From: an uncultured Gammaproteobacteria bacterium
GTDB lineage: Bacteria > Pseudomonadota > Gammaproteobacteria > CAWCPV01
Reading direction: 5' to 3'
DNA: 64,000 nt
Assembly (NCBI GenBank): GCA_963797555.1
Contig: CAWCPV010000008.1
Location: 1-64,000, forward strand
Numbering within the stretch: position 1 is the stretch's first letter; every line of letters starts with the position of its first letter. Below the pieces are notes generated by a model that was given only the letters and a program-made list of their open reading frames with translations, had not been told where the DNA came from and ran no database searches. Shown piece after piece: positions 8,849 to 53,799 of the stretch. The translations under genes were made by a program, and so were the position numbers.

Positions 8849-11151
8849 CAGAACTCCTGACATGCGCTACCTAACCGATTGAGAAGGCGCTATAATCGAT
8901 GCTGGTATCGAAATATAAATACGAGACCAGAGGAATGCTATGCCAGGCACCATTGAGCTTCCCTTGCTGCCCGAACAGGCTGTGACATTGGGTCCGCGGT
9001 TGACGGTCATCGAAACGCCCAAGGAACTCGTGTTCATGAATGCCTCCGGTCCGTTGATGAGCTGCGCGCGTACGGATACGACGGCTAAGCGTTACCTCGG
9101 GGCGGTGTTCATGACGCAGGGTTTAGCGAAGGGTGAGGACTTGGCGGCGGTGTTGGGTGTTCACCGCTCGACGGTATTTCGCAACCAGAAGCTGTATCGC
9201 GAAGGGGGTCTTGATGCCATACGCGATGGCCGAGGCCATGGTGCGCCGCGTCGTGGGCATAAGCTCACCGATGAGGTTTTGCCGATCGCTCAGGCGTGCT
9301 TGGACCAAGGGTGCTCGCAGTCGCAGGCCGCGCGTGCGCTCGGTGTGAGTGAGACGGCGGTGCGCCATGCGATCAAGACCGGACGGCTGCGCCGCCAGCG
9401 GCCTCGACAACACCGCGCCGCGCTCTTGCCAGGCGAGCGGGCTGAGCGTGACGCCGCGCAGGCCCGCGGGGCGGGTACCGCGGTCAAACGCTTGGAGGAA
9501 CGCGTCCTCGCCTGCCAAGGGATGCTCGGCGAAGCAGCCCCCCACTTTGAGCCTGCGGAGGGCGTGGCGAACGCCGGCGTCTTGCTTGCCTTACCGGCCA
9601 TGATTGGTGAAGGTCTGCTGTGCCACGCCGAGCGTGTTTACGCGCCGCTCAAAGCCGGGTTCTATGGTCTGCATTCGATCCTGTGGTGCCTGGTCATGAT
9701 GGCGTTGTTGCGCATCAAGAGCATTGAGCGCCTGAGTGCCCATCAACCCGGTGAGCTGGGCATCTTGCTGGGACTGGATCGCGTGCCGGAAGTCAAAACG
9801 CTGCGGCGTAAGCTCGCGCAACTGGGAGTTCGCCAACAGGCGGCGCAACTCGCCGCGGCGTTGACCGCCCAGTGGGCGCAGGGGGAGCCCGATGAGCTGG
9901 GCATACTGTACGTCGACGGTCACGTCCATGCCTACACGGGGCGCAAGCATCCGCTGCCTAAGACGTTGGTGCAGAAACGCCGCCAGTGTCTGCCCGCCTC
10001 GACGGATGTTTGGGTGCATAACGGAGCGGCCGAGCCGGTGTTCTTCGTCACCAGCCCCCTCAATGGACACCTCTTGGCGCTGATCGAGCAGGAGGTCATT
10101 CCCCAGGCGCGCCAGCAGATCGGCCCCGACCGGACGCTGACCTTGGTGTTTGACCGTGAGGCTTGGAGCCCCCAGTCCTTCCAGCAGTGGCACAGCCAAG
10201 GGGCCGAAGTCATCACGTATCGCAAGGGTAAACAAACGCCCTGGGACCCGGAGGACTTCCGCCCCTTAAGCGTCGAGCACCACGGTAAGTCTGTGACCTA
10301 TAGTCTGGCCGAGTGCAGCGTGCAGGTCATCGCTGCCAATCGCAAACAACCCGCCTTGTGGATGCGCGAGATCCGCCGCTTATGCAAAAACGGACATCAG
10401 AGCGCGATCCTGACGACCCGGCAGGACTTACCTGCCGCAGAGATCGCCCATCGCATGTTCGGCCGTTGGCGCCAAGAGAACTTCTTCAAATACCTGCAGG
10501 ACGAATTCAACATCGACCACTTGAGCACCTATGCCACCGAACCAGCCGATCCTGAGCGGATGGTTCCCGATCCTGAGCGCCGAGCGCTGATAAAATCGCT
10601 CCAGGCAACCAAGGCGCAGCTCGGCAGAGCCTACGCCCAGCGTGGCAAGCACCAACGTAACAGGGCATCGACGGCGAAGCAAGAGAAGGCGACAGAGGCC
10701 ATCGAACGATTGGAAAGGCAATGCGAGCAACTCAGCGAACGCATCAACGCGATGGAAAAGCGCGTGCCATTGAAGAGCATTTATGAGGCGGACAAGATCG
10801 TACATCACGAACGCGAACGAAAAACCATTACCCAGCTCATCAAGGTCGTCGCTTATCGCAGTGAGAGTTGTCTCGCGAGCATTGTCGAACCCTTTTTCGT
10901 GCGCCACGACGACGAAGTTCGCGCCTTCCTCAAAGCCGTGTTCTGCTTACCCGGCGATATTATCCCGGATTACCAGCGCCATGAATTGCGGGTGCGTCTC
11001 TACGGCTTGGCCAATAATCGATCTCAACAAGCTCTCATCGCTCTTTGCGAATATCTGAATACCCAGCCGATGAAATACCCTGGCACCCACCTGCGCCTGG
11101 TCTACGACACCGTCCAGTCGCATTGAATTTAGCGCCAAGTCAGGAGTTCTG
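8849..11151 (+). mobile_element. Complete 2303-bp insertion sequence
   Basis: IRs CAGAACTCCTGAC (8849-8861) and GTCAGGAGTTCTG (11139-11151). Direct repeat CATTG at 8844-8848 and 11152-11156. Confidence 0.9.
8940..11126 (+). CDS. DDE transposase (IS4-superfamily YREK-type), 728 aa, with N-terminal HTHs and a coiled-coil insert
   Basis: HTHs LAAVLGVHRSTVFR and SQSQAARALGVSETAVRH; catalytic candidates YVDGH, VFDRE, RWRQENFFK; ORF fills the IR-bounded element. Confidence 0.85.
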   Translation: MPGTIELPLLPEQAVTLGPRLTVIETPKELVFMNASGPLMSCARTDTTAKRYLGAVFMTQGLAKGEDLAAVLGVHRSTVFRNQKLYREGGLDAIRDGRGHGAPRRGHKLTDEVLPIAQACLDQGCSQSQAARALGVSETAVRHAIKTGRLRRQRPRQHRAALLPGERAERDAAQARGAGTAVKRLEERVLACQGMLGEAAPHFEPAEGVANAGVLLALPAMIGEGLLCHAERVYAPLKAGFYGLHSILWCLVMMALLRIKSIERLSAHQPGELGILLGLDRVPEVKTLRRKLAQLGVRQQAAQLAAALTAQWAQGEPDELGILYVDGHVHAYTGRKHPLPKTLVQKRRQCLPASTDVWVHNGAAEPVFFVTSPLNGHLLALIEQEVIPQARQQIGPDRTLTLVFDREAWSPQSFQQWHSQGAEVITYRKGKQTPWDPEDFRPLSVEHHGKSVTYSLAECSVQVIAANRKQPALWMREIRRLCKNGHQSAILTTRQDLPAAEIAHRMFGRWRQENFFKYLQDEFNIDHLSTYATEPADPERMVPDPERRALIKSLQATKAQLGRAYAQRGKHQRNRASTAKQEKATEAIERLERQCEQLSERINAMEKRVPLKSIYEADKIVHHERERKTITQLIKVVAYRSESCLASIVEPFFVRHDDEVRAFLKAVFCLPGDIIPDYQRHELRVRLYGLANNRSQQALIALCEYLNTQPMKYPGTHLRLVYDTVQSH

Positions 11152-39202: not shown

Positions 39203-40696
39203 ATGGAGGAGCGCACCGTCGCCAAGCTGTCGCAGGCGCTGGGCCGCCGGGCCGTCTCCAGCGAGGAGCTGACGCGGTTCTACCTGCAGCGCATCGAGCG
39301 CCTCAACCCTCTCTTGAACTGCTACGTCACGGTCTGCGCCGGCGAAGCGCTTGCGGCGGCGCGTGCAGCCGACCGCCGCATCGCGGCCGGGGAAGCCGGG
39401 CCGCTCACGGGCATCCCCATCGCCCATAAGGACATCTTCTGCACCCTCGGCGTGAAGACGAGCTGCGGCTCGCGCATGCTGGACACCTTCGTGGCCCCGT
39501 ACGACGCCCACGTGGTGAGCCAGCTTAAGGCGGCGGGGGCGGTGCTTCTCGGGAAGACCAACATGGACGAGTTTGCCATGGGCTCGTCCAACGAGACCAG
39601 CTACTACGGCCCGGTCAAGAATCCGTGGGACCTCGGTCGGGTGCCGGGCGGGTCGTCGGGCGGCAGCGCAACGGCGATCGCCGCTCAGCTCGCCCCGGCG
39701 GCAACCGGCACGGATACCGGCGGCTCCATCCGCCAGCCGGCGTCACTCTGCGGCATCACGGGCCTCAAGCCGACCTACGGCCGGGTCTCGCGTTACGGCA
39801 TGGTCGCCTTCGCTTCCAGCCTGGATCAGGGCGGTCCCATGGCGCGCACCGCCGAGGACTGCGCCCTGTTGCTCGGCGCCATGGCGGGGTTTGACGAGCG
39901 CGACTCTACCTGCGTGGACCGCCCAGTAGAGGATTACGCCGCTGCTCTCGGCCGGCCGGTCGAGGGCCTGCGTATCGGGCTGCCCCGTGAATATTTCGGG
40001 CCGGGCCTGGACGCCGAGGTGGCCCAGGTCATCGAGGCGGCGGTCGCGCAGTACGAGGGAATGGGAGCACGGGCCGAAGAGATCAGCCTGCCGAACACGG
40101 CGTTGGCCGTGCCGGCCTACTATGTGGTGGCCCCGGCCGAGGCCTCGTCGAACCTGGCGCGCTACGATGGGGTGCGCTACGGCTACCGCTGCGACGCGCC
40201 CCGCGACCTGGAGGATCTCTACAAGCGTTCCCGCGGAGAAGGCTTCGGTCCCGAGGTGACGCGGCGCATCCTGGTGGGGACCTATGCGCTGTCCGCGGGC
40301 TACTACGACGCGTATTACCTCAAGGCGCAGAAGCTGCGACGCCTGATCAGCGAGGACTTCCGCCGGGCCTTCGGGCAGGTGGACGTGATCATGGGGCCCA
40401 CTTCGCCCACCGTGGCATTCAGAATCGGGGAGAAGACCACGGACCCCGTGGCCATGTATCTCTCGGACGTCTATACGATTGCCGTGAATTTGGCCGGTCT
40501 GCCCGCCATCTCGCTGCCGGCGGGCTTCGCGAGCGGGCTGCCGGTCGGCCTACAGATCATCGGCGACTACTTCGAGGAGGCGCGTCTGCTCAATGCCGCC
40601 CACCAGTATCAGCAGGCGACCGACTGGCATCGGCGCCTGCCCGAGGGATCTGAAGGCGTGGGGGAAGGCGTGAAGGCCGCGAGGGGCGAATGGTGA
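39203..40696 (+). CDS. gatA: Asp/Glu-tRNA amidotransferase subunit A
   Basis: [42 protein letters not shown]. Confidence 0.97.
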
Positions 40697-42174
40697 CGTC
40701 GGAAGTGGCAGCGAGAGTCTCGGAAACGCTCCAGCGTTGGGAGCCGGTCATCGGCCTGGAAATACACGCCCAGCTCTCCACGGTGAGCAAGCTGTTCTCG
40801 GCGGCGCCGACGGCCTACGGTGCGCCCCCCAACACGCAGGCCTGCGGTATCGACTTGGGGTTGCCGGGGGTGCTGCCGGTCCTCAACCGGGAGGCCGTGC
40901 GCATGGCGGTGAAGTTCGGGCTCGCCATCGCCGGGGAGATCGCGTGCCGCTCCGTGTTCGCGCGCAAGAACTACTTCTATCCGGACCTCCCCAAGGGCTA
41001 CCAGATCAGCCAGTACGAGCTGCCGCTCGTCTTGCACGGCTATGTGGACATCGAGGGCGATGACGGGCGCACCAAGCGCATCGGTGTCACCCGGGTGCAC
41101 ATGGAGGAGGACGCCGGCAAGTCGGTGCACGACGTCTTCCACGGCCTCACGGGCATCGATCTGAACCGGGCCGGCACCCCGCTCATCGAGATCGTGTCCG
41201 AGCCGGATCTGAGGTCGGCCCGAGAGGCGGTGGCCTACATGAAAAAGGTGCACGCCCTGGTGCGCTACCTGGAGATCTGCGATGGCAACATGCAGGAGGG
41301 CTCGTTCCGGTGCGATGCCAACGTCTCCGTGCGGCGCAAGGGCGATCGGCACTTCGGGACGCGCACCGAGCTGAAGAATCTGAACTCCTTCCGGTTCGTG
41401 GAGCGTGCCATCAACTACGAGATCGAGCGGCAGATCGACGTGCTGGAGGGCGGTGGGAGCGTGGTGCAGGAGACGCGTCTCTACGATGCCGACAGGAACG
41501 AGACGCGGCCCATGCGCTCCAAGGAGGAAGCGCACGACTACCGCTACTTCCCCGAGCCCGATTTGCTGCCTCTGGTGCTCAGCGAAGCGGTCATCGAGGA
41601 GGCGCGAAACGAGCTGCCGGAGCTGCCGGACGCCAAGCGCGAGCGTTTCGAGACCGAGTACGCCCTGAGCGGCTACGATGCGGGTGTGCTGACGGCGACC
41701 CGTGACATGGCGGACTACTTCGAGGCGACGGTGCGGGGCTGCGCAGACGCCAAGCTCGCGGCCAACTGGGTGATGGGCGATCTCTCTGGGGCACTGAACA
41801 AGTCCGCTGTGGAGATCGCCGACAGCCCGGTGAGCCCGGCGCAGCTCGCGGGGCTGCTGGGTCGTATCCTGGACGGCACGATCTCGGGCAAGATCGCCAA
41901 GCAGGTATTCGAATCCATGTGGGCCGGTGAAGGGGACGCCGACGCCGTCATCGAGCGCGAGGGGTTGCGCCAGATCACCGACACGAGCGCCATCGACCGG
42001 GTCATCGAGCAGGTGATCGCCCAGTTCCCGACCCAGACGGCGCAGTACCGCGGCGGCCAGGAGAAGCTGCTGGGCTTCTTCGTGGGTCAGGTCATGAAGG
42101 CCACGGCCGGCAAGGCCAACCCCCAGCAGGTGAATGCCGTGCTCAAGGAAAAGCTGGCCGGCCCCAGGGGTTGA
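40690..42174 (+). CDS. gatB: Asp/Glu-tRNA amidotransferase subunit B
   Basis: [52 protein letters not shown]. Confidence 0.97.
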
Positions 42175-42295
42175 ACCGGCCACCCTTGTGCCGAGAACCG
42201 CTCCCCGCTCGGGGGGAACGGGGCAAACGCGCTCCGCGTCGGCGCAGTGAAGCCGCCGAGACCGTCCCGGACCCGCTCTGCCCGCCGGGGTGCGC

Positions 42296-43151
42296 ATGGC
42301 ATCCCTAGCCGATCGCCTGAAGCTCTCCGCCCGCGCCCTGCTGGATCCGGGTTGGCTCGATCAGTGGCCGCGCCTCGTGAGACCGGCCCAGTTCCTGCTC
42401 GTCAGCCTGCTTGCCTACGAAGTCGCGAACCTCACCCTGCTCATCGTGGGCCCCCACTCTCTGGACGCGCCCTCCAAGGCGACCGTCCCGGTTCACTCTC
42501 GAAACGCCGGGCTGAGCGCCGAGGAGCTGCGTTATCTCCTGGCCCAGGACCCGTTCGCCGGTGCCGCGGGTGCGGGGAAGACCACGACGTTCTGCAGCTC
42601 CTGCGGGCAGGAGCCGGCTGCGGGTCGAGCTGATGGGCACCTCCGTGGGGGAAGAGCCGGACAGCTATGCCATTCTGTTGGTGCCCGAGCTGAAGCCGCA
42701 GGAGGAGGTCTATCGCCTCGGCGAGCAGCTCACGCCAGGCGTGTCCCTGCGGCGCATCGAACGCGACCGGGTGGTGCTGCTCGACCACGAACAGGAACAG
42801 ACGGTCATGCTCGAAGAGCGGGGCTCGGCGGCTCCGGGACAGGGGACGCCGGCGCGCACGCTTTCCAGGGCGCAGGTGAACGCCCAGAAGCAGGACCCCG
42901 CCCGATTCATCCGCAGCATCGAGCTGCAGCCGGCTGCCCAGGGGCTGCAGGTGACGCGTCTGCAGCAAGGCAGTCTTCTGCAGCGCGCCGGCCTCGCCCA
43001 GGGCGACGTGATCTTGGCGGTGAACGGGCAGCCCGTCAGATCGATGGGGGACTTGGCGGCTGTCTATGGAGGCATGGAAGAGGCCAGCGACATCGAGGTC
43101 CAGGTCCTGCGCGGCGGTGCGGCGATGACCCTGTCGGTGGCGATCCGCTGA
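42296..43151 (+). CDS. gspC: Type II secretion GspC-like protein (TM + HR + PDZ), frameshift at ~42590
   Basis: N-terminal TM; L.GT...YAIL...Y.LGE...L..I..DRVVL HR domain; PDZ GL..GDVILAVNG. Confidence 0.7.
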
Positions 43152-43212
43152 GAGCTTAGTGCCGGATAGGCCAGTTGCTATACTGAGCCTTGGCCACTCC
43201 AGGGAGGCAGCT

Positions 43213-43410
43213 ATGAGCAAAGTGGAGGCACTGGAAGAGGAGGTGCGCAAGCTCTCGACTGAGGATCTGGCCACATTTCGCCAATGGTTTCAGGCGTTCG
43301 ACGCCGAAGCGTGGGATCGCCAGATTGAGGCCGACGCGCTTGCAGGCAAGCTTGATGCGCTCGCGGGAGAGGCGTTGAGGGACTATCAGGCTGGGACCAC
43401 GTCGCTTTGA
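43213..43410 (+). CDS. Small antitoxin of a RelE/ParE-type TA pair (gene cassette)
   Basis: MSKVEALEEEVRKLS..D...FRQWF...DAEAWDRQIEAD...GKLD.LA.EAL; GGAGG SD and TATACT -10 upstream; overlaps the toxin ORF. Confidence 0.75.
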   Translation: MSKVEALEEEVRKLSTEDLATFRQWFQAFDAEAWDRQIEADALAGKLDALAGEALRDYQAGTTSL

Positions 43411-43657
43411 ATCATCACGCTTCGCCGGCCTTCTGGGTCTGTTATCGCGCCCTGCCGCCAGCGGTGCGCGAACGGGGTGACAAAAACTTCTCCCTGCTCA
43501 AGCAAGACCCCTACCTCGCTGCATTTTTAAGCGCATGGGCGTTATTTCTCGGTGCGCGTAGGTCGGCAGTACCGAGCCTTTGGGGCTTGAGGTGCCCGAT
43601 GGGGTGCTGTGATTCTGGATAGGGAGTCATGCGGATTACGATAAGCTCGTGGGGTAA
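43407..43657 (+). pseudogene. RelE/ParE-like toxin with multiple frameshifts and a TGG>TGA nonsense
   Basis: FW.CY..LP..V....K.F.LLKQDP...SLHF...SVRVG..YRA...L*FWIGSHADYDKL across frames. Confidence 0.75.
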
Positions 43658-43693
43658 CAATTGCTTGCCGCCGAAGGGGAGGCGGCGTTAATG
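43652..43693 (+). other. Shortened attC-like site
   Basis: GGGTAAC at the toxin stop, internal hairpin GCCGCC..GGCGGC, then GTTAATG. Confidence 0.4.
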
Positions 43694-43996
43694 TTCCCGC
43701 CCGGGAGGCGTGACCGACGCGATTCGAGCGAAACTGGGGGGGGTGGAGCGGGGCGCTCTGTGAGCGGTTCTTCAATCCGGTCCTGGAGAAGCTCACCCTA
43801 CGTTCCGAGCAAGCCAGCGGTTAGCCTCGGTGGCTGCAGGTCCGGCTCGCCGCGGCCCCCTATCTCGCCGACCTCGAACCGCTCCGTGAGGGTGATGATT
43901 CGTTTGCCGCGGCGTGTGCCGGCCGAGGGCACCCCCGCGTCCTCGCGCGGTGCTGGGCGCCGTTCTGACGGGAGCACGCCCGGACGCGGCGCGTTG

Positions 43997-44401
43997 CCCT
44001 TGACACGCACCGTGTGTGCTGTGCAAGCTTGTCCCTACGGCGCTGGTCCGCCCCCTGGCGGTGATGCCTCGGTGGGGAGAGCCGAGGTCCGGGCAGTAGG
44101 TAGCAGAAGGTGGCGGAGAAGACCACCGGGAGGTGTCATGGGAGGCAACGCCACAATTCCGATCTGCCCATTAGGTCGGAACCCTCCGCGCCGCGGCAGG
44201 GATTACAAAGGCGCGGCGTCCGGCTCCGAGGTCTCCAGTGCGGGTCGGCCGCACCTTGTCCGCCTTTCCCCGGCGAGAAGTCTCTGCACCACGATCCGGC
44301 CTCGTAGGTTCACGGCATCTAAGGCCTTGTCTTGGCGCAGACTCACGGGCTTCCACGGCGTCCGAACCGAGCACGGTCCGCGGGGTGGGCGTGCGGGATA
44401 G
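43997..44401 (+). repeat. Leader repeat copy 1 (promoter + SD + leader ORF, joined to a cassette core site)
   Basis: Collinear with 45307-45680. TTGACA at 44000-44005; GGAGGTGTC-ATG with ATG at 44138; leader ORF stops at TAG 44399-44401. Confidence 0.8.
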
Positions 44402-44413
44402 GCTGCATTAAGC

Positions 44414-44854
44414 ATGACCGATGTCCGTAGAGCTGATCCGGCTGCTCGACGACGAGCGGTTCTCTTTGTCGCCGTCGCAATAGTTGTCGGAACGCTTCTG
44501 ATTGTTGGCCTCGAGCGATATCGCGACCCACTCCGCGATTGGGTCCTCGCGGAACCAGCGACATCAGCGGAGCGAATCAGCTTGATACTTCTACTTGTCG
44601 CCGCGCTCTTGCTAGCGCCGCTACTTGGGTTCGCGGCCTATCTTTGGTCGCTCGGCGGAAGGATTCTCCGAGCGAAAGAGTTTCCACCGCCGGAGCTTCA
44701 CGTTATTCGCGATACTCAGGTCATCACCGGCGAAGCGGCGGTATCCCGGGGACGGCATCTCAGAATGCTGGCGGTTGGCTGTGGCGTTGCTAGCATTGCG
44801 TTAGGTTTTCTGCTCTGGCGCCTGGCGTCAATGTTTAACGACCATGCAGCCTAA
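44414..44854 (+). CDS. Gene cassette: 146-aa hypothetical membrane protein (3 TM)
   Basis: Bounded by GATAGGCTGCAT (44397-44408) and ATGCAGCCTAAC (44844-44855), 11/12 complementary; FPPP motif. Confidence 0.75.
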   Translation: MTDVRRADPAARRRAVLFVAVAIVVGTLLIVGLERYRDPLRDWVLAEPATSAERISLILLLVAALLLAPLLGFAAYLWSLGGRILRAKEFPPPELHVIRDTQVITGEAAVSRGRHLRMLAVGCGVASIALGFLLWRLASMFNDHAA

Positions 44855-45025
44855 CCCCGTGCTAAACACGGCGCGCAGGGCGCGGGCCACGCCCGATCCC
44901 TGCGCGCTGGCGGACTCTCCATCTTGGAAGGGCTCTACGCTAGAGGTCACCGCTTTGTTGACAACTAGCGGGGCAGATCGTCCGCCGGCGGATGCTAACA
45001 AGCGAGAACTGACCCCAATGTCGCA

Positions 45026-45197
45026 CTACTTGGGTTCGCGGCCTATCTTTGGTCGCTCGGCGGAAGGATTCTCCGAGCGAAAGAGTTTCCACCGCCGGAG
45101 CTTCACGTTATTCGCGATACTCAGGTCATCACCGGCGAAGCGGCGGTATCCCGGGGACGGCATCTCAGAATGCTGACGGTTGGCTGTGGCGTTGCTA
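45026..45197 (+). repeat. 172-bp copy of 44621-44792 (one mismatch), flanked by TGACCCCAA(T/C)GTCGCA direct repeats
   Basis: Direct sequence comparison; repeats at 45010-45025 and 45202-45217, partial third copy at 45218-45232. Confidence 0.92.
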
Positions 45198-45306
45198 TGG
45201 GTGACCCCAACGTCGCAGGCCCCAACGTCGCACCGTGCACCAGGGGGGCATCGCATGCACGTCGGGTGGGCAGCGGTGTGGTCCGCCGTCTCCAACGCCG
45301 GCGCGG

Positions 45307-45680
45307 GCCTTGACAGACGCCGCGTGCGCTGTGCAATCTTGTCTCCACGGCGCCGGCTGGCCCCCTGGCGGTGAGCCTCGGTGGGGAGCGGGTCGAGGTA
45401 GTACGCAGTGCAGAAGGTGGCAGAGAAGACCATCGAGGAGGTGTCATGGGAGGCAAGACCGCAATTCGAAGCTGTCCGTCAGACCTGGGCGCTCCGCGCC
45501 GCGGCCGGGATTACGAAGGCGCGCCATCCGGCTCCGGGGTCTCCCGTACGAATAGACCGACCCTGTCCGCCTTTCCCCGGCGAGAAGGCTCTTCACCGCG
45601 ACCCAGCCTCGACCGTTCACGGTGTGTACGTCCTTGTTTTAGCGGAGACTCACGGGCGTCCGTATACTCGCTCTTAGGCG
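45307..45680 (+). repeat. Leader repeat copy 2 with an attI-like end
   Basis: TTGACA at 45310-45315; GGAGGTGTC-ATG with ATG at 45446; ends CGTATAC-TCGCT-CTTAGGC (7-5-7 arrangement). Confidence 0.8.
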
Positions 45681-45697
45681 TTCCGAAAGGCTTGGTT

Positions 45698-46323
45698 ATG
45701 AGTTTATTTGGATTTTTGAGCAGGAAGAAACGAGTCTCTGGCACCATTGCCTACTTCGGCTTAGAAGACTGGTGGTTCTCGGCATTCTCCGAGCATGAGC
45801 GCCGATACATCCAACAGAGGTTCCAGCCGTTAGGTTCCTCTGGCAACTCCGTAACTTCCGGTGACATTAGCTATACAAGCCAATCTGTTGGCAGCTTTCT
45901 TAGCGCCTTGGCCGGGTGGTTTGGCAAGAAGGAAGATAGGCCCATTGCATATAGGATTCTAGAGAAAGCTGAAGAACTGTCTAAGACCGAGAGTCAAATT
46001 CTTGATATTCATTTCCTATATGGAGAGCAACTTGCACTCTATTACAAGGACAGAGATAATCCGACGTTCTAGAAAAAGCTATTGAGGCATGCAAACGACA
46101 GATATCACTCGCTGACGCGGCAGCGAGTGCATTCCAAGCCGAGTATAAGGGCGATGCCTTGCCTAGTCACAAGGGGTATGAACAGTTGTCCATCATCTTG
46201 GAAAAGCAGATGAAGTTCGTCGAGACAATCGAGTTATGTACCCAAGCTGCGAAGCAAGGATGGGCTGGGGATTGGGAGAAAAGAATAGAACGTTGTAGCA
46301 AGAAGATAATGAAGAACGCATAA
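45698..46323 (+). CDS. Gene cassette: helical/TPR-like hypothetical protein, frameshift at ~46068
   Basis: ORF continues in a second frame (LEKAIEACKRQI...LPSHKGYEQLSIILEKQ...GWAGDWEKRIERC). Bounded by TTAGGCGTTC and GAACGCATAA; lower GC than the host genes. Confidence 0.7.
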
Positions 46324-46759
46324 TGGTGAATCGTTAGGTCGTAAACTGCAGGATATTTTGCGAAGGACGACCTACTGATTCATCGCGGTGCTGAAATCAA
46401 TTCAAAGGAGACGAAAATGTCAAGAAACGAAGATGCGATGATGCACCTAAGCTGGGCAAGGCAGGCAGAAAAACGAGGAGATTTTTTAGCCGCCAGGATA
46501 GAGTATCTTAAATGTGTAGAGTCTTGGAAACAGGCTGGTGACAATGTGGAGTTAGAAAAAGCGACGAAGGAATATGAAGCGTTCGTAAGACGAGACCCCA
46601 TATTTGAGAAACTCATCTCCGTATTATTACCAATGATTCAGGCCGACCCGGGCGTTTTGCAATCCGACATCGCCAAACAAGCCGAGTCCATGGATTGGGC
46701 AGCGCTTTATAGTTACAACCGGCCGGTAGCAAGGGAAGATATCTATTACGCTCTTTAAT

Positions 46760-48285
46760 GGCTCTTTCCGGAATCGTGTGGGTAGCAATGGCTATGGCGT
46801 GGGGGCATCTGCCTGATCTCCGACACCAGCGGGTGTGTTGAACGGCGAGGCGGGCAGGTGGGCCAGGTTGCCGGCGATGAGGTAGGCGATGGTGATGAGC
46901 GAGTGCGTGGTGCGGTAGCCCCGGGCGCGAGCCTTGGCGGCCTGGATGAGGGAGTTGATGCCCTCGGCGCGGCCGTTGGTGAGGCCCGAGTGGAACGCAG
47001 CGAGCACGCCGTCCCAATGCTCTTTCAGGGTAGTGGCGAGGCGTTTCATGGGCTGCAGGCGGCTACGCCGTGCCCAGCTATACCAGCGCCCGAGGGCGCT
47101 CTCGGCCTGCTCGAGGGTGCTGGCCGTGGCGTAGATATCGCGCAGCGCCTCCTTGAGGCGCCAGGCACGGGCGGTCTGGAGGCGGCGCGGGAGAGCCAGT
47201 GGAAGTCGGTGAGCTGGTCCCAGGTCCAGTCGTGGGCGTCTTTGAGCCAGGTCCAACGGGTGCCTCTGAGGGCGGGCTCGGTCTTGATCTCCTGGCGGCG
47301 CACCGCATCGACCGCCTCGTTGGCGAGCTTGATCACATGGAAGGCATCGAAGCTCACCGTGGCCTGGGGCAGGTGCCTGGCCACCCCGGCGCGGTAGGCG
47401 CCGGACAGGTCGATGCACACCTGCTCGATGGCCTGCGGGTCGCCGCCGTGCGCCTTGAGGTCGGCGGCGAAGGCCGCCACGGTGCTCTGGTCGCGGCCCT
47501 CGCAGGCGAACAGCAGGCGTTTTCCCGTGAGGTCATGGAACAGGCTGATGTAGTGCTGTTCACGCCGGGCAGCGGTCTCGTCCAGACCGATGGCGCGCAC
47601 CTGGGAGTGGTCCTCCTGATCGCGGGCCCTGCCCACGTAGTGCTTGAGTACCGCCCACAGGCGCTCATCGCCCACGCCCAGGTGCCGAGCCACGGTCGCC
47701 ACCGGCATGGCCTGGCACAGCGTGACCACCAGCGCCTCCATCAGCGCCGTGAAGCCACTCTGTGCGCGCGCCCACGGCGCTTCGACCTGGGTCGTCTTGC
47801 CGCAGGCCTCGCAGCGCAATCGCGGCAGATGCGCGTGCAGGTACGCCCGTGACTTAAAGAAGCTCAGGTGCTGCCAACTGCGCTCCCGGGTGTCGTGCAC
47901 CGGCTGGCCTTGCGCTCCGCAGGCCGGGCAGGCAAAGCGGCTGCCCTTGGCAAACGCCACATCGAGGTCGATGCGCCCAGCCTCGGGGTCGAACCGCACG
48001 TCGGTGACCTCCCAAGGCACCGTCAGGCCCAGTGCCGTGGTAAACAGATGCGTGGGCTGCACGGTGCTCCCCCCTTGGATGACGGCCTGTGGATTTGTGG
48101 ACGAGTCCTGCGGAGCGGCCCGCGTCCCAAGGACCGTGTGGACAACCTCCCGGTTGCCCACACTCGCGGGCCTCTCGCCCACAACCCCACAAGCCCACAA
48201 GCCCAACCACAAGATGTTGTGATAAGCGACCAGTCAGGGCAAATGCTACTTCACCACCGCGACCCACACAATTTCCGAAAGAGCC
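46760..48285 (-). mobile_element. ISL3-family insertion sequence (1526 bp)
   Basis: IRs GGCTCTTTCCGGAATCGTGTGGGT and (rc) GGCTCTTTCGGAAATTGTGTGGGT; 8-bp TSD TCTTTAAT / TCTTTATT. Confidence 0.92.
46792..48062 (-). CDS. ISL3 transposase, 1-bp frameshift at ~47185
   Basis: Zinc finger CPACG...CEACG, IGLDET, CIDLS.AY, FDAFHVIK, TNGRAEGINSLIQ..K..ARGY. Confidence 0.9.
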
Positions 48286-48373
48286 TCTTTATTTCGCTGA
48301 CAAGTTCGGCAGAATCACAAGGACCAAGAAAGGGCGGTCTTATGAAGTACGAATCGCCGGTTAACTACCGACG

Positions 48374-48466
48374 GCCTAAGCCGGTGTTGGAGGCGGGCGC
48401 GGGGAGACGGCACCATGTTTCCTATTATGGCCGGGACCGAGCTGCTAAAACGGCTTAGCGTTAGGC
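48374..48466 (+). other. attC site
   Basis: GCCTAA(g)CCGGTG...CGGCTTAGC GTTAGGC imperfect palindrome between two cassette ORFs. Confidence 0.7.
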
Positions 48467-48488
48467 ATTCCGCGATGGTCGTGGAAAG

Positions 48489-49190
48489 ATGAAAACGCGG
48501 CTCAGAATTCCAAAGATAGTTGAGAAACGTGTATTCCAGGAGGTAGGATCTCGCTGCCCTTTCTGCTCAGAGACCGAGGTTGCCTCTCTGGAAATCCACC
48601 ACATTGATACTGATCCCGCAAATAACCGTTTCGAGAATCTCCTTCTCGTGTGCGCGACATGCCACTCAAAGATAACTGCCGGGATTATCTCTGAGGCAGA
48701 TGTCCAATGGACGAAACGTCATTTCAAAACGCCACTGCAGTCTATTCGCCGCAGCGCTGAGCCTTCCGTGGCGGTGTCAATCTCCCACTCCGAGTTCCGC
48801 GGCGATATAGCTCACACCATCAACAAGATCGCGGCGCCACGTCCTCTACGGATACGACATCCCGAAGGTTCGTTAGGTGCCGACTTGAAGAAAAGAGGTT
48901 ACATTGATTATTTGATTACTCAATACTTTTCGTTCCGAAAAGCTGGCGTTTCGTACGGGGACGTTCGAGCGTTTTCATATGCTGAACTTCATAGGACGAT
49001 TCAAAAGAGGTTCGGGTACAAGACGTTTTTCATGCCTGTAGAGCTATTTTCTTCCCTTGTGAAATTTCTACAACACCGTATTGACCAGACTATTCTCGGA
49101 AAACATCGCCGCAGTGAAGGACAAACAAATTACCACTCGTATGCGGAGCATGTTGAAAAGCATGAGCAAAAGAATGAGGGAGACGCGTAA
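48489..49190 (+). CDS. Gene cassette: HNH endonuclease domain protein
   Basis: CPFC...LEIHHID.DP.NN..ENLLLVCATCH; stop lies within inverse core GCGTAAC. Confidence 0.85.
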   Translation: MKTRLRIPKIVEKRVFQEVGSRCPFCSETEVASLEIHHIDTDPANNRFENLLLVCATCHSKITAGIISEADVQWTKRHFKTPLQSIRRSAEPSVAVSISHSEFRGDIAHTINKIAAPRPLRIRHPEGSLGADLKKRGYIDYLITQYFSFRKAGVSYGDVRAFSYAELHRTIQKRFGYKTFFMPVELFSSLVKFLQHRIDQTILGKHRRSEGQTNYHSYAEHVEKHEQKNEGDA

Positions 49191-49269
49191 CCATCGCCGC
49201 GGCCGGCGAGCGGTTCTGAGAGTATCCGGAGGGTCACGGTTGGGCCGCGGTGGCTGAGGGGCAACGTTA
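49185..49269 (+). other. attC site interrupted at the core by an intron fragment
   Basis: GCGTAAC..CCGCGGCC...GGCCGCGG TGGCTGAG GGGCAAC GTTA. Confidence 0.7.
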
Positions 49270-49408
49270 TCGCGCTGGGCAAAGCTCGGCGCCTCTTGCA
49301 GGGTGAAAGTCCCTGTCGGGAAAGGGCTAGCCACCCACCCGTATCGAGTCTTGGGTCCATGGCGGAGCGGCCGATAGGCCGCGAACAAGATGGGCTAAGC
49401 GTAGACAG
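49270..49408 (+). mobile_element. Group II intron 5' (domain I) fragment, no RT ORF
   Basis: (T)CGCGCTGGGCAAAGCTCGGCGCCTCTTGCAGGGTGAAAGTCCCTG...CCACCCGTATCGAG...AAGCGTAGACAG matches the recurrent 5' domain-I sequence of attC-associated group II introns. Confidence 0.6.
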
Positions 49409-49443
49409 TGGCAGTTAATGGGGTCGTTAATGGGGTCAGACTC

Positions 49444-50948
49444 TAATGGCACTTACTTAACCTTTTTCGGATGTCCGTTCTCGCGGATTTCTTCCCGTAC
49501 GAGCTGTCTTGGCTTGCAGAGCAGCGGAAACGGTTTGGGTCGGCGTTTGACCGCTCTTGGCTCGACGCGCCGGGGGCGTTTCCCGACCCGCTGCTCGGCG
49601 ATCATCACGAGTAAGGCAGACAGAGTGACGGGGTCCTGCGCCCCGCCACGTTGCTGCCACACTGTCCAGATCTGGACGGTATGCTTGAAGCTGAGCTGGC
49701 GCGGGGTCTGATCGGCCAGCCAGGCGGCCTGGGCCATCAGCAACCGGATCAGATTGTAGGCCAGCAGATGAACCCAGACCTCTTTGATCGCCATCTCCGG
49801 GGTCTTGCAGCTCAGCATCTCCATGCCGAGCGTGGTCTTGATGTGGCGTAAGTCCAGCTCCACGTGCCAGCGCCGGCGATACAGCGTCTTGAGGGCGGGC
49901 TTCGGAGTGTGCCTGGGGCAGCAGAGCGTGGTGACCAGGGTCTTGCGGCCGGTGTGTAGCTCGCGCACCTGCAGGCTCTCGGGGGCTTGCTCGTAGTCGG
50001 CCTGGCGCATCCAGTCGGGCTTCTTGGGCTTGTGCAGCACGATGAGGTGGTCGCGCTCGCCGAGCTTCTCGCCCACAGAGAAGTCGATGCTGCGTCGCCG
50101 TGCCCCGTACTGTTCGAATACTCCGTCCACGCCCCGTTGCACCAGCTCGGAGAGCAGGAAATAGGTCGCGTAGAAGGCATCCCCCAAGAGGATGTCACCG
50201 GGGCGCAGGGTATCGAGCTGGGAGCGCAGCAGAGTCTGTTCATCGCTTCCCTTGCCTTGGCACGGGCCCGTGGCCACATCGAGCAACCCGCCACTGCCCA
50301 GGCACAGCAAAGCGACCAGGCGGCACTGGGGAAAACCCAGGCCCGCCTTCTGGCTGGCCGGTTGCGGATAGGCCGCTTGATTCTCCGGTGTATCCGGCAG
50401 CACCACCGTCGCCCCATCGACCAGACGCACCGGGCGACCCTGCCAGTGCCACATCGCCGGGGCACCCTCGGTGATTAGCCGCCCGGTGTGGCGGCACAGC
50501 CGCGTGACCATCTGAAGCGGCAGGCGCTGTCGTGCCTTGCAGTACGCCCCGGTGTGGGTACTGCATCGCGGCAGGCCGCCCACCAGGCGCTTGACCGCAG
50601 CATCATTCACCGCTTGCTGGCAGGAGCGGTCCGCCGAGAGCGTCTGCGCAAGAAACATCGACAGCGTCTCGGTGGGTGCAAACAGCCGCTCACGGTGCTC
50701 CGGCAGCAGCGACTCGACTTGCTCGAACAAGCGCGGGCCGGTGAGCAGGTTGAAAAACGCGTAGGAATCCGTGTTGGCAGCCTGATGACGAACCCGTCGC
50801 TGTTGCTGAACGCAGGCGCAGTGGCTAGGATGCATGAGGGCTGGCTCCCTGGGTGATGGACGTTGTGTTTGGCGACTCAACAGCCTATCACCTACGCCAG
50901 CCCTTCTGCATGCAAATTCAGTCAGTTGCGCTTAAGTAAGTGCCATTC
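49444..50948 (-). mobile_element. IS4-family (IS4 subgroup) element, 1505 bp
   Basis: IRs (T/G)AATGGCACTTACTTAA; 11-bp TSD GGGTCAGACTC at 49433-49443 and 50949-50959. Confidence 0.93.
49453..50880 (-). CDS. IS4 transposase (intact; start may be 50835)
   Basis: AYCKARQRLP, LVDGAT, LGDAFY, LYRRRWHVELDLRHIKT (YREK). Confidence 0.92.
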   Translation of the reverse strand: MSRQTQRPSPREPALMHPSHCACVQQQRRVRHQAANTDSYAFFNLLTGPRLFEQVESLLPEHRERLFAPTETLSMFLAQTLSADRSCQQAVNDAAVKRLVGGLPRCSTHTGAYCKARQRLPLQMVTRLCRHTGRLITEGAPAMWHWQGRPVRLVDGATVVLPDTPENQAAYPQPASQKAGLGFPQCRLVALLCLGSGGLLDVATGPCQGKGSDEQTLLRSQLDTLRPGDILLGDAFYATYFLLSELVQRGVDGVFEQYGARRRSIDFSVGEKLGERDHLIVLHKPKKPDWMRQADYEQAPESLQVRELHTGRKTLVTTLCCPRHTPKPALKTLYRRRWHVELDLRHIKTTLGMEMLSCKTPEMAIKEVWVHLLAYNLIRLLMAQAAWLADQTPRQLSFKHTVQIWTVWQQRGGAQDPVTLSALLVMIAEQRVGKRPRRVEPRAVKRRPKPFPLLCKPRQLVREEIRENGHPKKVK

Positions 50949-52470
50949 GGGTCAGACTCCATTGAGTGCGCGGTGAACTGCATTTCTCCGGCGAGCTGAC
51001 ACACTTGCCGAGCCACCAGGCTTTGCCCACCTGCTCACCGAGTTGCGCTCCCATGGACTGGTGGGCTACTCCAAGCCCCCGTTCGCCGCTCCCGAGCAGG
51101 TGCTGGCCCACAGGCTTCAGGCGGGCCTTGCTCATCAGCTCCTTCCCCAGGAGCCCAATCAGCTCCTCCAGGGTCTGAATCATCGCCAGACTGCTGTCCG
51201 CCGCCACCGCCTGAAGCTCATCGAAGAGCTTCTACGGCGACTGAAATCGAGCCGCTTGATCTTGTCGCCGCTCAGCCGTCGCCGTGTGCACGTGCGAGCA
51301 GATTCTGCCACATGGAGCGCGGATGGTGGCGAAGCCACGGTGCCTCTATTGAATCGATGCAGGGGTGGGTACTGGCGAGCAGCCCGCTGATGGCGCGCCT
51401 AGTCGCCTGGCACGCTGAACCGGGCGCAGGATCGGCTAGCGCGGAGTCGGTGCAGGCGACGTTGCTGTGGATACGGCTGTTGCTCCCCACGCCAAAAGCC
51501 ACCGGACCCTACGGTGTCATGGCGTACGACCACCGCCCCACGCGGCCATCGACCGCTGCCCGCAAGCCGGCTACGGCCCCCTGTAGTCCTCGCCCAATCT
51601 GCCGCTGCGGGCTACCTCTGCCATAGTGCAGTGCGGGGGAGACCACACAGACCGAGACCGGAGAAGGCGGTTTAGTCGCGAACGACATGAGACCACCCGG
51701 CACCAGCAGCGTGCCCGAAGCCAGTACGAACCATCCATGTGGGCGAGGCATGGGGAGGTCCGCCGGAGTCCTCAGGCCGTGGCATGCAGGAAGAGAGGCG
51801 TCAGAGAACCCAGTGGCAGTTAATGGGGTCAGACTCCATTGAGTGCGCGGTGAGCTGCACTTCTCCGGCGAGCTGACACACTTGCCGAGCCACCAGGCTT
51901 TGCCCACCTGCTCACCGAGCTGCGCTCCCATGGCTGGTCTACTCCTAGCCCCGTTGCCGCTCCCGAGCAGGTGTTGGCTTACCTCGGCGCTATGCCCACC
52001 GCGTCGCCATCAGCAATGAGCGGCTCCTCGATTCTCAGACGGCACCGACCGCTTGGCACGCCGCCGGGCGACCTTGCGCATTCCCGGCACCGACAGCAGG
52101 GGCTTCAAGGCAGGCTTCAGGCTCATCAGTTCCTTCCCCAGGAGCCCAATCAGCTCCTCCAGGGTCTGAATCACCGCCAGACCACTGTCCGCCGCCACCG
52201 CCTGAAGCTCATCGAAGAGCTTCTACGGCGACTGAGTCGAGCCGCTTGATCTTGTCGCCGCTCAGCCGTTGCCGGTGCGAGCAGAGTCTGCACATCGAGC
52301 ACGGGGGTGGTGGCGAAGCCACGGCGCCTACCATTGGATCTATGCAGGGGCGGGTACTGCTGCTCGCGGGCAGTATACCCGTGTGGCGGGCGGTGTGCGC
52401 GCTCGCTCGCCTTGGGATCTCCTGCGCGGGCACGGCCCCGATGTGGCTCCGCCTGCCTGCCAATCACTAG
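50949..52470 (-). pseudogene. Two tandem degenerate copies of a module containing an IS110-like transposase remnant (~50949-51385 and ~51811-52470)
   Basis: Aligned DNA; fragments QNLLAR..RLSGDKIKRL..AVAADS.LA.IQTLEELIGLLGKEL..KPLLSVPG. Confidence 0.55.
51712..51810 (+). mobile_element. Second group II intron domain-I-like fragment
   Basis: GAAGCCAGTACG...GGCGAG...CCGCCGGAGTC...CCGTGGCATGCAGGAAGAG...GAGAACC. Confidence 0.4.
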
Positions 52471-52515
52471 CCGGGTCTGGACCTGGGCCCGGGGCCAGCC
52501 CTCGGCCCAGGGGCC

Positions 52516-52860
52516 TCACTGGGCGCAGATGGCGATGGCCGTGGTTTGGCGTGCCATGGTGCCGGTGTTGTGCACCATGACATCCCAACCGTGATCGCTC
52601 AGGTTGCCATGGCCGTCGCTGGGCTCGGAGTGAAATACCTTGATGTCATCCGGCGTCTCAATGCTGAACCCGCCGCCGAGGACCTTCTTCCCGGCCGAGC
52701 AGTCCACATGCACCGTTTGGACGGCGCCGCCTGCCACAAGGACGCGGTTTTGCAGGGTCTCGTAACCGTTGATGCCGGCGCAGCCGCCGAGCATGCTGGT
52801 TCCTGCCAGGAAACCGACCAGGATCACAGGGCGAGTCGCAAACCGTTTGGATAGCTGCAT
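52516..52860 (-). CDS. Small putative lipoprotein with a C.xGKKVLGGG...W...AIC domain
   Basis: Signal peptide with lipobox-like LGGC; GGAGG SD; CSAGKKVLGGG and terminal AIAICA. Confidence 0.7.
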   Translation of the reverse strand: MQLSKRFATRPVILVGFLAGTSMLGGCAGINGYETLQNRVLVAGGAVQTVHVDCSAGKKVLGGGFSIETPDDIKVFHSEPSDGHGNLSDHGWDVMVHNTGTMARQTTAIAICAQ

Positions 52861-52996
52861 TTTCGACCTCCGTATGTGTCATGTCGTAGGACCTTCCACG
52901 CGGCCAGGTCATGCCCGCGAGCCGATACCCTAAAGGCAATCGCCGCTGCGGGCAATTCCACGGAAGTAATAGTGCGACAAACCTAGAAAAGGCGGT

Positions 52997-53160
52997 TTAG
53001 TCGCGAAGGACGTGAGATCTCCCTGGCACCAGCAGGTCAGGGGTTGATCTCCCTGGCGCGGGCATAGGCGCTCTGCGTGGCGGAGCGCGCCTGGATGACT
53101 TCGAACCAGCGCTTGAGTTTTGGGAAGTCGGCCAGGTGCTGGCGCTGCGCCCCGCCGGCA
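52997..53160 (-). pseudogene. Glutathione S-transferase C-terminal fragment (YfcG/YghU-like)
   Basis: RQHLADFPKLKRWFEVIQARSATQSAYARAREIN. Confidence 0.6.
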
Positions 53161-53244
53161 CCAATGCCGCTCCACCGCGCGCTCGAACCAGAGGCCGGCC
53201 GCTTGAGTAGCAGGTGGACGTTGGCCAGCCTCGTGGAGACGATG

Positions 53245-53746
53245 CCGCCCTGCGGGGTACCGGCTTCATGCGTATCCGCCATCACGGGCTGCTCGCCAAC
53301 CGCTGCCGCGCCGAGCGCCTGGCACGCTGCCGGGCGCTGCTCGGCCAGCCGGCGCCTGAACGGCGCGAACCGGAGTCGGTGCAAGCAACCCTGCTGCGCC
53401 TCACCGGCATCGACATCCAGCGCGCCCCTATTGCCGGGGAGGGCGGCTGCAGCAGGTCGGGCTCGTGGCGCGGCTTACGGCTGCTGCCCCACTCCAAAGC
53501 CACCGAACCCCCACAGTTCTCATGGCGACGACCACTCCCACGGCCCCGTGTCGTCCTCGCCCACCCTTGACCCCTCGCGGCCACCTCTGCCATAGTACCA
53601 TGCGGGGGACACCAGACCGAGACCGGAGAAGCGGTCCATGCACCACGTAGCCACCCGACCAGCCCGACTCGGAGCGGCCCGAGCGCCGCACCGCCCGCAT
53701 ACAATCCCCATCGCTCCGCGGGCTCAATCCAGCGGTTCAGTTCAAC
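53245..53746 (+). mobile_element. IS91-family transposase C-terminal remnant plus downstream non-coding end (partial second copy at ~51400-51670)
   Basis: GFMRIRHHGLLANRCRAERLARCRALLG...LRLTGIDI..(C)P.C; downstream CAATCCCCAT and GCGGTTCAGTTCAAC. Confidence 0.75.
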
Positions 53747-53799
53747 ACATTTTTGTCCATCATGCTGCCGCACGACGGACAAAATTCTATTCGTTAGAG
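53740..53799 (+). other. attC-like hairpin at the IS91 end
   Basis: GTTCAAC..TTTTGTCC...GGACAAAA..GTTAGAG. Confidence 0.55.

Follow-up and report, generated by a model that had tools for sequence, protein, structure and literature searches.

The window analyzed here, a 64,000-nt stretch of DNA from an uncultured bacterium of the class Gammaproteobacteria (positions 1 to 64,000 of contig CAWCPV010000008.1, GenBank assembly GCA_963797555.1), contains two related leaders, c1 and c2, each of which runs from a promoter-like element through a Shine-Dalgarno (SD)-like motif, a start codon, and an open reading frame (ORF) to an end resembling the attI recombination site of integrons, and is followed by a gene cassette of its own (Table 1). 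The textbook integron has one attI beside one integrase gene, intI, and only the cassettes nearest the cassette promoter, Pc, are expressed, while integrase-less arrays (CALINs) are usually read as silent fragments. The leaders of the window belong to a family with further copies elsewhere in the genome. We consider them likely to be detached Pc-leader-attI platforms, each standing at the head of a short cassette array and relying on an integrase supplied in trans from another locus.

A first-pass annotation of the window had described collinear, diverged copies near 43997–44401 and 45307–45680. This was borne out by a repeat search of the window (four collinear blocks at 78–92% identity), by pairwise alignment (mean column identity 83%), and by BLAST against the organism's own genome, where c1 and c2 match at 80% identity across query positions 8–364 with an E-value of 1.7e-83. 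Both leaders contain GGAGGTGTC-ATG-GGAGGCAA. The 3' end of c1 lies ~55 nt short of the end of the family alignment, at GGGATAGGC; the leader ORF of c2 continues in frame into the cassette ORF.

Table 1. Coordinates of leader copies and neighboring features. Positions without a contig name are those of the window; in sequences, here and in the text, a slash marks the cassette junction.
Feature	Position	Strand	Remarks
Leader/platform copy 1 (c1)	43991..44403	+	terminates at GGGATAGGC; nhmmer 44029-44428, E 8.9e-79
c1 promoter-like element	44000..44027	+	TTGACA 44000-44005, 16 nt, TGCAAG 44022-44027; read from sequence
c1 most conserved block	44109..44140	+	hairpin GGTGGCGGAGAAGACCACC 44109-44127, SD-like GGGAGG 44128-44133, ATG 44138-44140; invariant columns of eight-copy alignment
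c1 leader ORF	44138..44401	+	87 codons; TAG 44399-44401 inside GGGATAGGC, 12 nt before cassette ATG 44414
c1 distal conserved block TTGTCCGCCTTTCCCCGG	44255..44273	+	counterpart of GGATAGACGGACAATGTCCGCCTATCC hairpin in other copies
c1 proximal GTTRRRY-like box GGGATAGGC	44395..44403	+	cassette joined here; reads GGGTTAGGT in intI-adjacent site of G097
Cassette A	44404..44855	+	ORF 44414-44854, 146 aa, no Pfam family above cut-off; R''-like box GCCTAAC 44849-44855
Duplicate of internal cassette A part 44621-44792	45026..45197	+	172 nt, 99% identical; just upstream of c2
Leader/platform copy 2 (c2)	45301..45679	+	nhmmer 45339-45662, E 3.6e-66
c2 promoter-like element	45310..45337	+	TTGACA, 16 nt, TGCAAT
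c2 hairpin GGTGGCAGAGAAGACCATC, SD-like GAGGAGG, ATG 45446-45448	45416..45448	+	
c2 attI-like simple site	45662..45679	+	GTATACT (L-like), CGCTC, CTTAGGC (R-like); junction between 45673 and 45674
Cassette B	45674..46323	+	ORF ATG 45698 to stop 46323; frame break near 46066-46072
ISL3-family insertion sequence	46760..48285	-	terminal inverted repeats; interrupts next cassette ORF 46417-46758; context, outside leader
Near-full leader copies	C16:30575; C4:574262(-); C7:292940; C4:465828(-); C4:466735(-); C9:210602; two in window		nhmmer
Partial leader copies	C4:640441; C14:58207(-); C7:469849(-); C3:157114; C3:158048; C3:207753(-)		nhmmer

The leader recurs well beyond the window. When the assembly (5.35 Mb in 20 contigs, 84.6% complete) was searched by nhmmer with a profile built from eight copies, 20 matches were obtained at E ≤ 0.01, comprising 8 near-full copies, 6 partial copies, and 6 reverse-strand matches to palindromic parts (five to the 3' module and one to the distal hairpin), with copies on 7 contigs; those discussed below are labeled c1–c3, C4a–C4d, C9, C14, and C16. 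Two tandem pairs are present, c1-cassette-c2 and C4c-cassette-C4b. The copies open at a conserved CTTGACA; across a ten-copy alignment the −35 hexamer reads TTGACA in eight copies and TTGATA in two, and the SD-like motif and ATG are kept in all ten. The near-invariant block consists of a hairpin, GGTGGCGGA..AGACCACC, and GGGAGG-N4-5-ATG, and the invariant columns of the eight-copy alignment fall into two clusters, GGTGGC.GA..AGACCA.C.GGAG....ATGGG.GGC and a distal ...ATGTCC.CCT.T..CC. Between c1 and C16, 16/18 and 16/20 positions are identical in the core blocks, compared to 4–11/20 in most other 20-column segments and 12–13/20 in two segments flanking the first core block. Most copies end in GTCTACT-N4-6-G/TTAGG. 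C4b and C4c lack the ~50-nt proximal module.

The SD-like motif and ATG common to all ten copies, together with a similarity between the c1 and c2 peptides over about 40 residues, could be taken to mean that the repeat encodes a small conserved protein, and the first-pass annotation had indeed credited both copies with a related leader peptide beginning MGG. The likeness turns out to be that of the DNA alone, as mismatches are spread evenly over the codon phases (50/40/51 for c1 versus c2; 60/58/64; 30/29/26 for C16 versus C4a; six other pairs similar). Moreover, the peptides read from the conserved ATG vary both in length (37, 54, 87, 95, 106, and 208 aa) and in sequence, and seven long leader ORFs, six of the window and one of C16, match no Pfam family at E ≤ 0.1. 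A conserved protein product is thus extremely improbable: the leader repeat is non-coding. Neither is it part of a known insertion sequence (IS) or protein gene as far as the Pfam, Rfam, and plasmid collections searched are concerned, the last of these yielding no match in a distant-homology search with the leader.

Varied cassettes follow the 3' ends of the leaders, in line with what the first-pass annotation had anticipated, starting at G/TT and carrying matching R'' boxes in their attC sites. The junction reads ...G/TTAG(G/C)G in c3, C16, C9, and C4d, G/TTAAGC in C4b, G/TTGAAC in C4a, and C/TTAGGC in c2; C4c reads GGTAGGC at the same place, and c1 is joined at GATAGGC. A simple site with an R box of the form GTTRRRY and a first cassette attached at G/TT is therefore found in these leaders with the exception of c1, c2, and C4c. 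The simple site of c2 aligns with the GTCTACT-N4-6-G/TTAGG of c3, C16, C9, C4b, and C4c. The C16 junction is ...GTCTACTCATATG/TTAGGGC, and the first cassette ends in GCCCTAAC; three successive attC sites can be recognized here by eye, with each cassette start complementing its own R'' box, and three attC sites were scored behind c3 by a heuristic finder. For both c3 and C16 the R'' box matching the cassette start is the 8-mer GCCCTAAC, while that of C4a, GGTTCAGTTCAAC, matches the post-junction bases at 12 of 13 positions, and that of c1, CATGCAGCCTAA followed by C, at 10 of the 12 positions of the 12-mer searched. Comparable matches are seen behind related sites in two other genomes (11/11 in G362 and 9/11 in G025, see below), and none was found for c2, C4b, C4c, C9, or C4d. 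The ORFs downstream differ between copies and have a third-position G+C content of 0.45–0.57, versus 0.8–0.9 in the flanking chromosome. Our home-made attC finders, of which the final version has a background of 0.2 matches per 9 kb and still misses some sites, provide counts that serve as support only; stricter versions missed sites plain by eye because neighboring cassettes supply the R' half.

Two of these loci, c3 (which follows radA) and C16, have 713 nt in common at 99.7% identity, a block made up of the proximal module and a single cassette with its attC. This block breaks off at the attC R' box, beyond which the loci are unrelated, while their leaders are 45–75% identical. A crossover at GATAGGC as the start of this block was considered and rejected, because the attI module is identical in c3, C16, and C4d, so that the left edge cannot be placed. 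The leader itself is not an attC site, as its GTTAGG has no RYYYAAC partner; the distal and proximal boxes do pair GCCTATC with GATAGGC, but ~150 nt apart and with ATC/GAT replacing AAC/GTT.

Some of the material behind the leaders deserves description in its own right. Encoded in the four cassettes behind C16 (locus L009, G000:C16:24000-40000, positions 7019–10114) are, among others, a DUF6338 protein and a fusion of a response-regulator receiver with a CAP12/Pycsar-type TIR domain, the latter resembling an anti-phage defense cassette. The "cassette" behind C4a (L010, G000:C4:566000-582000, positions 5563–7642, minus strand) is a 2.6-kb unit with a tyrosine recombinase of 279 aa (Phage_integrase and SAM-like N domains, ~30% identical to IntI) adjoining an IS91-family Y2 transposase, the pair being packaged like an integron cassette that begins G/TTGAAC at the C4a attI and ends in a 59-nt attC-like site, GTTCAAC...ATTCG/TTAGGC. 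Several copies of this unit exist (two on C4, others on C17 and C18), and the same attC-like end stands alone at window positions 53740–53799. The partial C14 leader is followed by two small genes (C14:57691–58100, minus strand) that by eye resemble a HicB/HicA-type antitoxin-toxin pair.

The attI itself would comprise the last ~215 nt of the leader, with two GTTRRRY-like boxes, the distal GATAGAC and the proximal GATAGGC, an 11-bp palindrome (GGACAATGTCC) coming after each, then an invariant TCCGTGTTTAA center, a third palindrome, and the simple site GTCTACT-N4-6-G/TTAGG as the presumed point of cassette insertion. In a BLAST search of 400 genomes of the same class with the C16 leader, only the last ~70 nt found matches, namely in the genomes G362 (two places), G025, G097, G214 (two), and G002. 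Three genomes place a ~65-nt module of this kind close to intI, ~240 nt from the gene start in G097 (integrase score 462.9 bits), ~260 nt in G199 (478.2 bits), and ~285 nt in G214 (contig C154; 483.3 bits), in each case divergent from an integrase above the family cut-off. A nine-sequence alignment of the module keeps GGA..TCCGTGTTTAA..GG..TCC..TA..GTTAG; the GATAGGC of the present genome corresponds to GTTAGGT, a consensus R-type box, in G097, and the GGAMNNNKTCC palindromes take the form GGAC..GTCC in this genome and G214, and GGAA..TTCC in the majority of the sites of G362, G025, G097, and G199. The simple site of c2 likewise aligns with the intI-adjacent sites of G097 and G199. Resemblance extends further upstream in G199, where the box-plus-palindrome is repeated distally, ~190 nt upstream of its proximal counterpart, an arrangement that matches the two GGATAG(A/G)CGGACAATGTCCG boxes of the present leaders; the same canonical region has a CTGT-N8-ACAG box near intI, which we take to be a LexA-box pattern. 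As judged by sequence, then, the 3' module is homologous to attI sites lying 240–300 nt from intI in G097, G199, and G214, which bears out the attI-like end proposed in the first-pass annotation.

Orphan sites are not confined to the genome under study. G199 has a second ~210-nt attI region ~580 kb from intI that lacks both intI and the CTGT-N8-ACAG box, and in G214 contig C48 retains the whole intergenic region to ~8 nt from the would-be intI ATG, with a different gene adjoining. G362, with two modules, and G025, with one, are single-contig genomes, 100% complete by score, in which no integron integrase was detected at E ≤ 1e-30. What is peculiar to the present genome is the copy number (8 or more), the lack of a canonical copy, and the extra ~200-nt 5' part. 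This 5' part, with the promoter-like element, hairpin, and SD-ATG, was not found in any of the 400 same-class genomes in the BLAST search with the C16 leader. Closer relatives are lacking at the family and order levels, as both groups contain this genome alone, and an exact-pattern scan for GGTGGCGGANNAGACCACCNGGAG over genome and metagenome contig collections returned one match each, both in unrelated actinobacterial coding sequence and rejected as chance.

The near-invariance of the hairpin and the GGGAGG-N4-5-ATGGGAGGC block raises the question of whether the 5' ~200 nt chiefly acts as a structured regulatory RNA, riboswitch-like or small RNA-like, that controls cassette expression. The C16 leader folds with a z-score of −5.21 (0/100 shuffles as good), and RNAalifold finds changes on both sides in 19 of 55 pairs. 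However, the c1 fold is unremarkable (z −0.19, 41/100 shuffles as good), the alifold covariation term is unfavorable (+3) with many pairs broken, and the gain in C16 stems from base pairs between the distal GTCCGCCTATCCC and the proximal GGGATAGGCGGAC, two inverted copies of one protein-type box. Likewise, the nine aligned module sequences agree throughout the left arm of the central palindrome, but differ in its right arm without compensating changes. Rfam returned no match to the leaders at gathering score in the whole window (where the only match was a group II intron at 49306–49443), at E ≤ 1 for three other copies, or even at E ≤ 10 for positions 43900–45800. An RNA of this type is very improbable, and we read the boxes and palindromes as likely DNA sites for proteins.

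No intI or remnant of it lies beside the leaders (0/10): a tblastn search of the 700 nt upstream with five IntI proteins gave nothing better than E 0.05, which is noise, and the adjoining, divergent intI that accompanies the modules of G097, G199, and G214 is found at none of them. Within 5 kb of the leaders, the sole tblastn match to integron integrases is the IS91-linked recombinase downstream of C4a. The genes upstream are instead chromosomal genes of an ordinary, housekeeping kind: an auxin-efflux-type membrane transporter, radA, an epimerase, and an amine oxidase, and, in the window, gatB, a T2SS-C/PDZ protein, and two small ORFs. The absence of an integrase noted in the first-pass annotation thus holds for the ten copies examined. 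Elsewhere in the genome there is one intact integron integrase, at C7:47556–48500 (502.5 bits, cut-off 265 bits), which is not near any leader. A second, truncated intI at C3:989422–989835 (L017; model positions 1–138), also not near any leader, has the same short attI as the intact gene, GGTGTCGACTTCATG/TTAGGC, and a cassette behind it.

One could imagine that the leaders are inert relics of complete integrons, left after deletion of intI and no longer working as sites. The orphan region of G214 looks like such a case, with another gene replacing intI, as do the intI-free sites of G362 and G025; the truncated intI of the present genome would fit as well, as would the decay of the window cassettes, seen in a frameshift, an inserted IS, and attC sites of poor quality. 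Deletion of intI, however, cannot produce tandem pairs inside arrays, and it has left no remnant beside any of the ten copies. Furthermore, the −35 hexamer, the hairpin-SD-ATG block, and the distal block have hardly changed between paralogues that are only 45–80% identical, which is suggestive of continued selection, and the presence of a 99.7% identical cassette after two diverged leaders suggests that cassettes have moved recently. Inert relics are therefore unlikely.

The structure of the family bears on whether the leader could itself be mobile, that is, a non-coding promoter module that spreads through a mechanism of its own, through rearrangement by IS elements, or as a cassette of a special kind, rather than a fixed attI platform. 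There are at least three subfamilies. In that of c1, c2, and c3, homology begins only ~10 nt before the −35 hexamer, with nothing in common further upstream, as might be expected of a mobile module. Mosaics point in the same direction: c3 is 73–76% identical to c1/c2 and 45% identical to C16 over columns 1–225, 75% identical to C16 and 48% to c1 over columns 226–385, and identical to C16 at 59/59 positions in columns 386–445, thus joining a c-type 5' half to an A-type 3' half, while in C4d the distal GGATAG box marks the junction with a 5' part of another type. IS-end-like GACCCCAAYGTCGCA repeats lie just upstream of c2 and C4d, and IS elements abound in the genome, from which we infer that IS-mediated rearrangement may have placed some copies. 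On the other hand, we saw no terminal inverted repeats or target duplications, the 5' side has no attC, so the leader is not a cassette, and other subfamilies carry more conserved upstream sequence (~290 nt in common to C16, C4a, and C4c; ~230 nt to C9 and C14). The mosaic junctions also lie in the most conserved blocks, the switch in c3 being in the conserved distal block, where ordinary homologous recombination could put them too. Mobility of the leader is, in our view, quite unlikely. In C9 and C14, the ~230 nt preceding the −35 hexamer (L013 7340–7575 and L014 8265–8500) contain at least six (C/G)TCGGA(G/C) motifs in both orientations, which may form the binding array of a regulator.

Returning to detached platforms as the preferred explanation, each leader would represent the non-coding half of an integron, in which a Pc-like promoter is followed by a 5' leader, equipped with a start codon and a strong ribosome-binding site, and by a long attI, but which has no intI. 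Transcription would start after the conserved TTGACA, the putative −35 hexamer of the Pc-like promoter, and ribosomes loaded at GGGAGG-N4-5-ATG would read across attI and help to express the first cassette, either by termination-reinitiation or by fusion. An integrase encoded elsewhere would act on the leader attI in trans, the candidates being the intact intI on C7 and a closer cognate missing from the incomplete assembly, and the outcome would be many small cassette arrays in the genome, each with its own entry point. Consistent with translational coupling, of the 7 copies for which the end of the leader ORF was computed, 4 (c1, c2, C4b, and C4c) have an ORF that extends to the cassette start, its TGA overlapping the cassette ATG as ATGA in C4b and C4c; cassette A behind c1 has no SD of its own. 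The free-standing Pc-attI modules without integrase proposed in the first-pass annotation thus gain support from the additional copies, the varied cassettes, the lack of adjacent intI, and the attI homology, but to call them an undescribed system is too strong, and a variant integron architecture is the better description.

Several observations weigh against this interpretation. A consensus scan for sigma-70 promoters passed over the leader elements owing to their weak −10 candidates (TGCAAG, TGCAAT, and CAGACT). The leader ORF stops well inside the leader in 3/7 copies (c3, C16, and C4a), and at 65% G+C long ORFs often arise by chance. Within the window, the c1 cassette is joined at GATAGGC rather than at the simple site, and its junction, GGGATAGGC/TGCAT, has an A where a G/TT exchange with cassette A predicts T (GGGTTAGGC), while the base before TT at the c2 junction is C instead of G. 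Clean attC sites are few in the window array; the heuristic finder reported none within 40001–53739 and in the whole window only the one at 53740–53799. With regard to the integrase, both copies of the resident intI have a different attI of ~150 nt (GGTGTCGACTTCATG/TTAG), and the intact protein is 60–68% identical to the integrases beside leader-type attI, which are 70–72% identical among themselves, so that for trans action the resident enzyme is a candidate only. No cassette common to the leader arrays and the canonical arrays was found, the matches being mostly IS copies. Finally, the pattern TCCGTGTTTAA-N20-40-GTTAG, which occurs at 11 sites in 6 of 401 genomes (four in this genome, two each in G362 and G199, and one each in G025, G097, and G092, the last of which we set aside as looking like chance), is unspecific, a reversed control giving 8 sites in 6 genomes. 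The pattern alone therefore proves little, and the attI argument rests on the extended similarity of the matches and their position beside intI.

In the window array, the ends of cassette A are connected by a 10-bp inverted repeat (TAGGCTGCAT and ATGCAGCCTA), and its end, ATGCAGCCTAAC, is the reverse complement of its start bar one base, with A for the expected T. The 172-nt duplicate of part of this cassette is bracketed by GACCCCAAYGTCGCA repeats at 45010–45025 and 45198–45232, and a similar sequence, GACCCCATTAGTCGCACC, lies upstream of the leader copy cut short at C4:640441; such repeats may be scars of an IS end. Cassette B matches no Pfam family and has no clear attC at its end. Its frame change lies at a run of A (…TTCTAGAAAAAG…), where the addition of one base would join 124 aa and 84 aa into one protein, and reflects either a pseudogene or an assembly error. 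The ISL3-family element further downstream has ~40 similar copies in the assembly at 89–99% identity. Group II intron RNA (RF02005) is found at window positions 49266–49443 and at L015 9078–9384 (56.7 and 83.1 bits), starting directly after an attC R' box (GTTAT/CGCGCTGGGC, the slash here marking the intron start), the arrangement known for attC-targeting group IIC introns. In the window, the intron is truncated by a gene for a DDE transposase (49453–50880, minus strand) with inverted repeats on its flanks (49411–49460 and 50932–50981).

A wider and more tentative proposal, which we regard as possible but doubtful, is that of a distributed integron, in which integrase-less platforms with their own promoter and translated leader are selectively maintained beside housekeeping genes and served by one integrase in trans, and in which the GATAG(A/G)C boxes may be extra crossover points that shuffle and multiply platforms. 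Cassettes would then be expressed from many first positions at once rather than from one. We found no description of multi-copy integrase-less attI platforms in the integron literature searched. If such conserved platforms are real, one integrase can feed many entry points, several cassettes can occupy an expressed first position simultaneously, and some CALINs function as sites of expression and are not debris. The leader attI would also represent a rare attI family beyond classes 1–3 that is recognizable by sequence, so that orphan sites can be searched for systematically, and the leaders offer a natural set of variants (GAT for GTT boxes and C/TT junctions) for the attI requirements of an integron integrase.

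Among known systems, the nearest is the intI-Pc-attI platform of G097, G199, and G214, with which the leaders have in common the ~65-nt module made up of a GTTRRRY-like box, a GGAMNNNKTCC palindrome, TCCGTGTTTAA, a second palindrome, L and R boxes, and G/TTAG; they differ in having no adjacent intI and in being present in 8 or more copies instead of one. In class 1 integrons, Pc lies inside intI1 upstream of attI1 (~65 bp), and the short ORF-11 aids translation of the first cassette. The likeness would lie in the upstream promoter, putative in the leaders, a short ORF with a good ribosome-binding site running across attI, and an L/R simple site with upstream direct-repeat boxes for integrase binding. 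However, there is no sequence similarity, the leader attI is ~215 nt long, the putative Pc is not accompanied by intI, and the ORF varies from 37 to 208 codons with an unconserved end.

CALINs, in the passages of Cury et al. (2016; PMC4889954) that deal with them, are attC clusters without an integron integrase, and one split off from an integron is treated as cut off from Pc; attI, according to the same passages, is unknown for most integrons and therefore not searchable. The leader arrays resemble CALINs in having no nearby intI, and those behind C16 and c3 would score as such, but a conserved attI with a promoter-like element of its own stands at their head. Chromosomal cassettes away from the integron, expressed if a promoter is near, are also a feature of the attG/SALIN system (Loot et al., bioRxiv 10.1101/2022.09.11.507474). 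As characterized in the parts of that preprint concerned with these sites, attG differs greatly from att sites in sequence and structure, whereas the leader sites are homologues of true attI and form a conserved multi-copy family.

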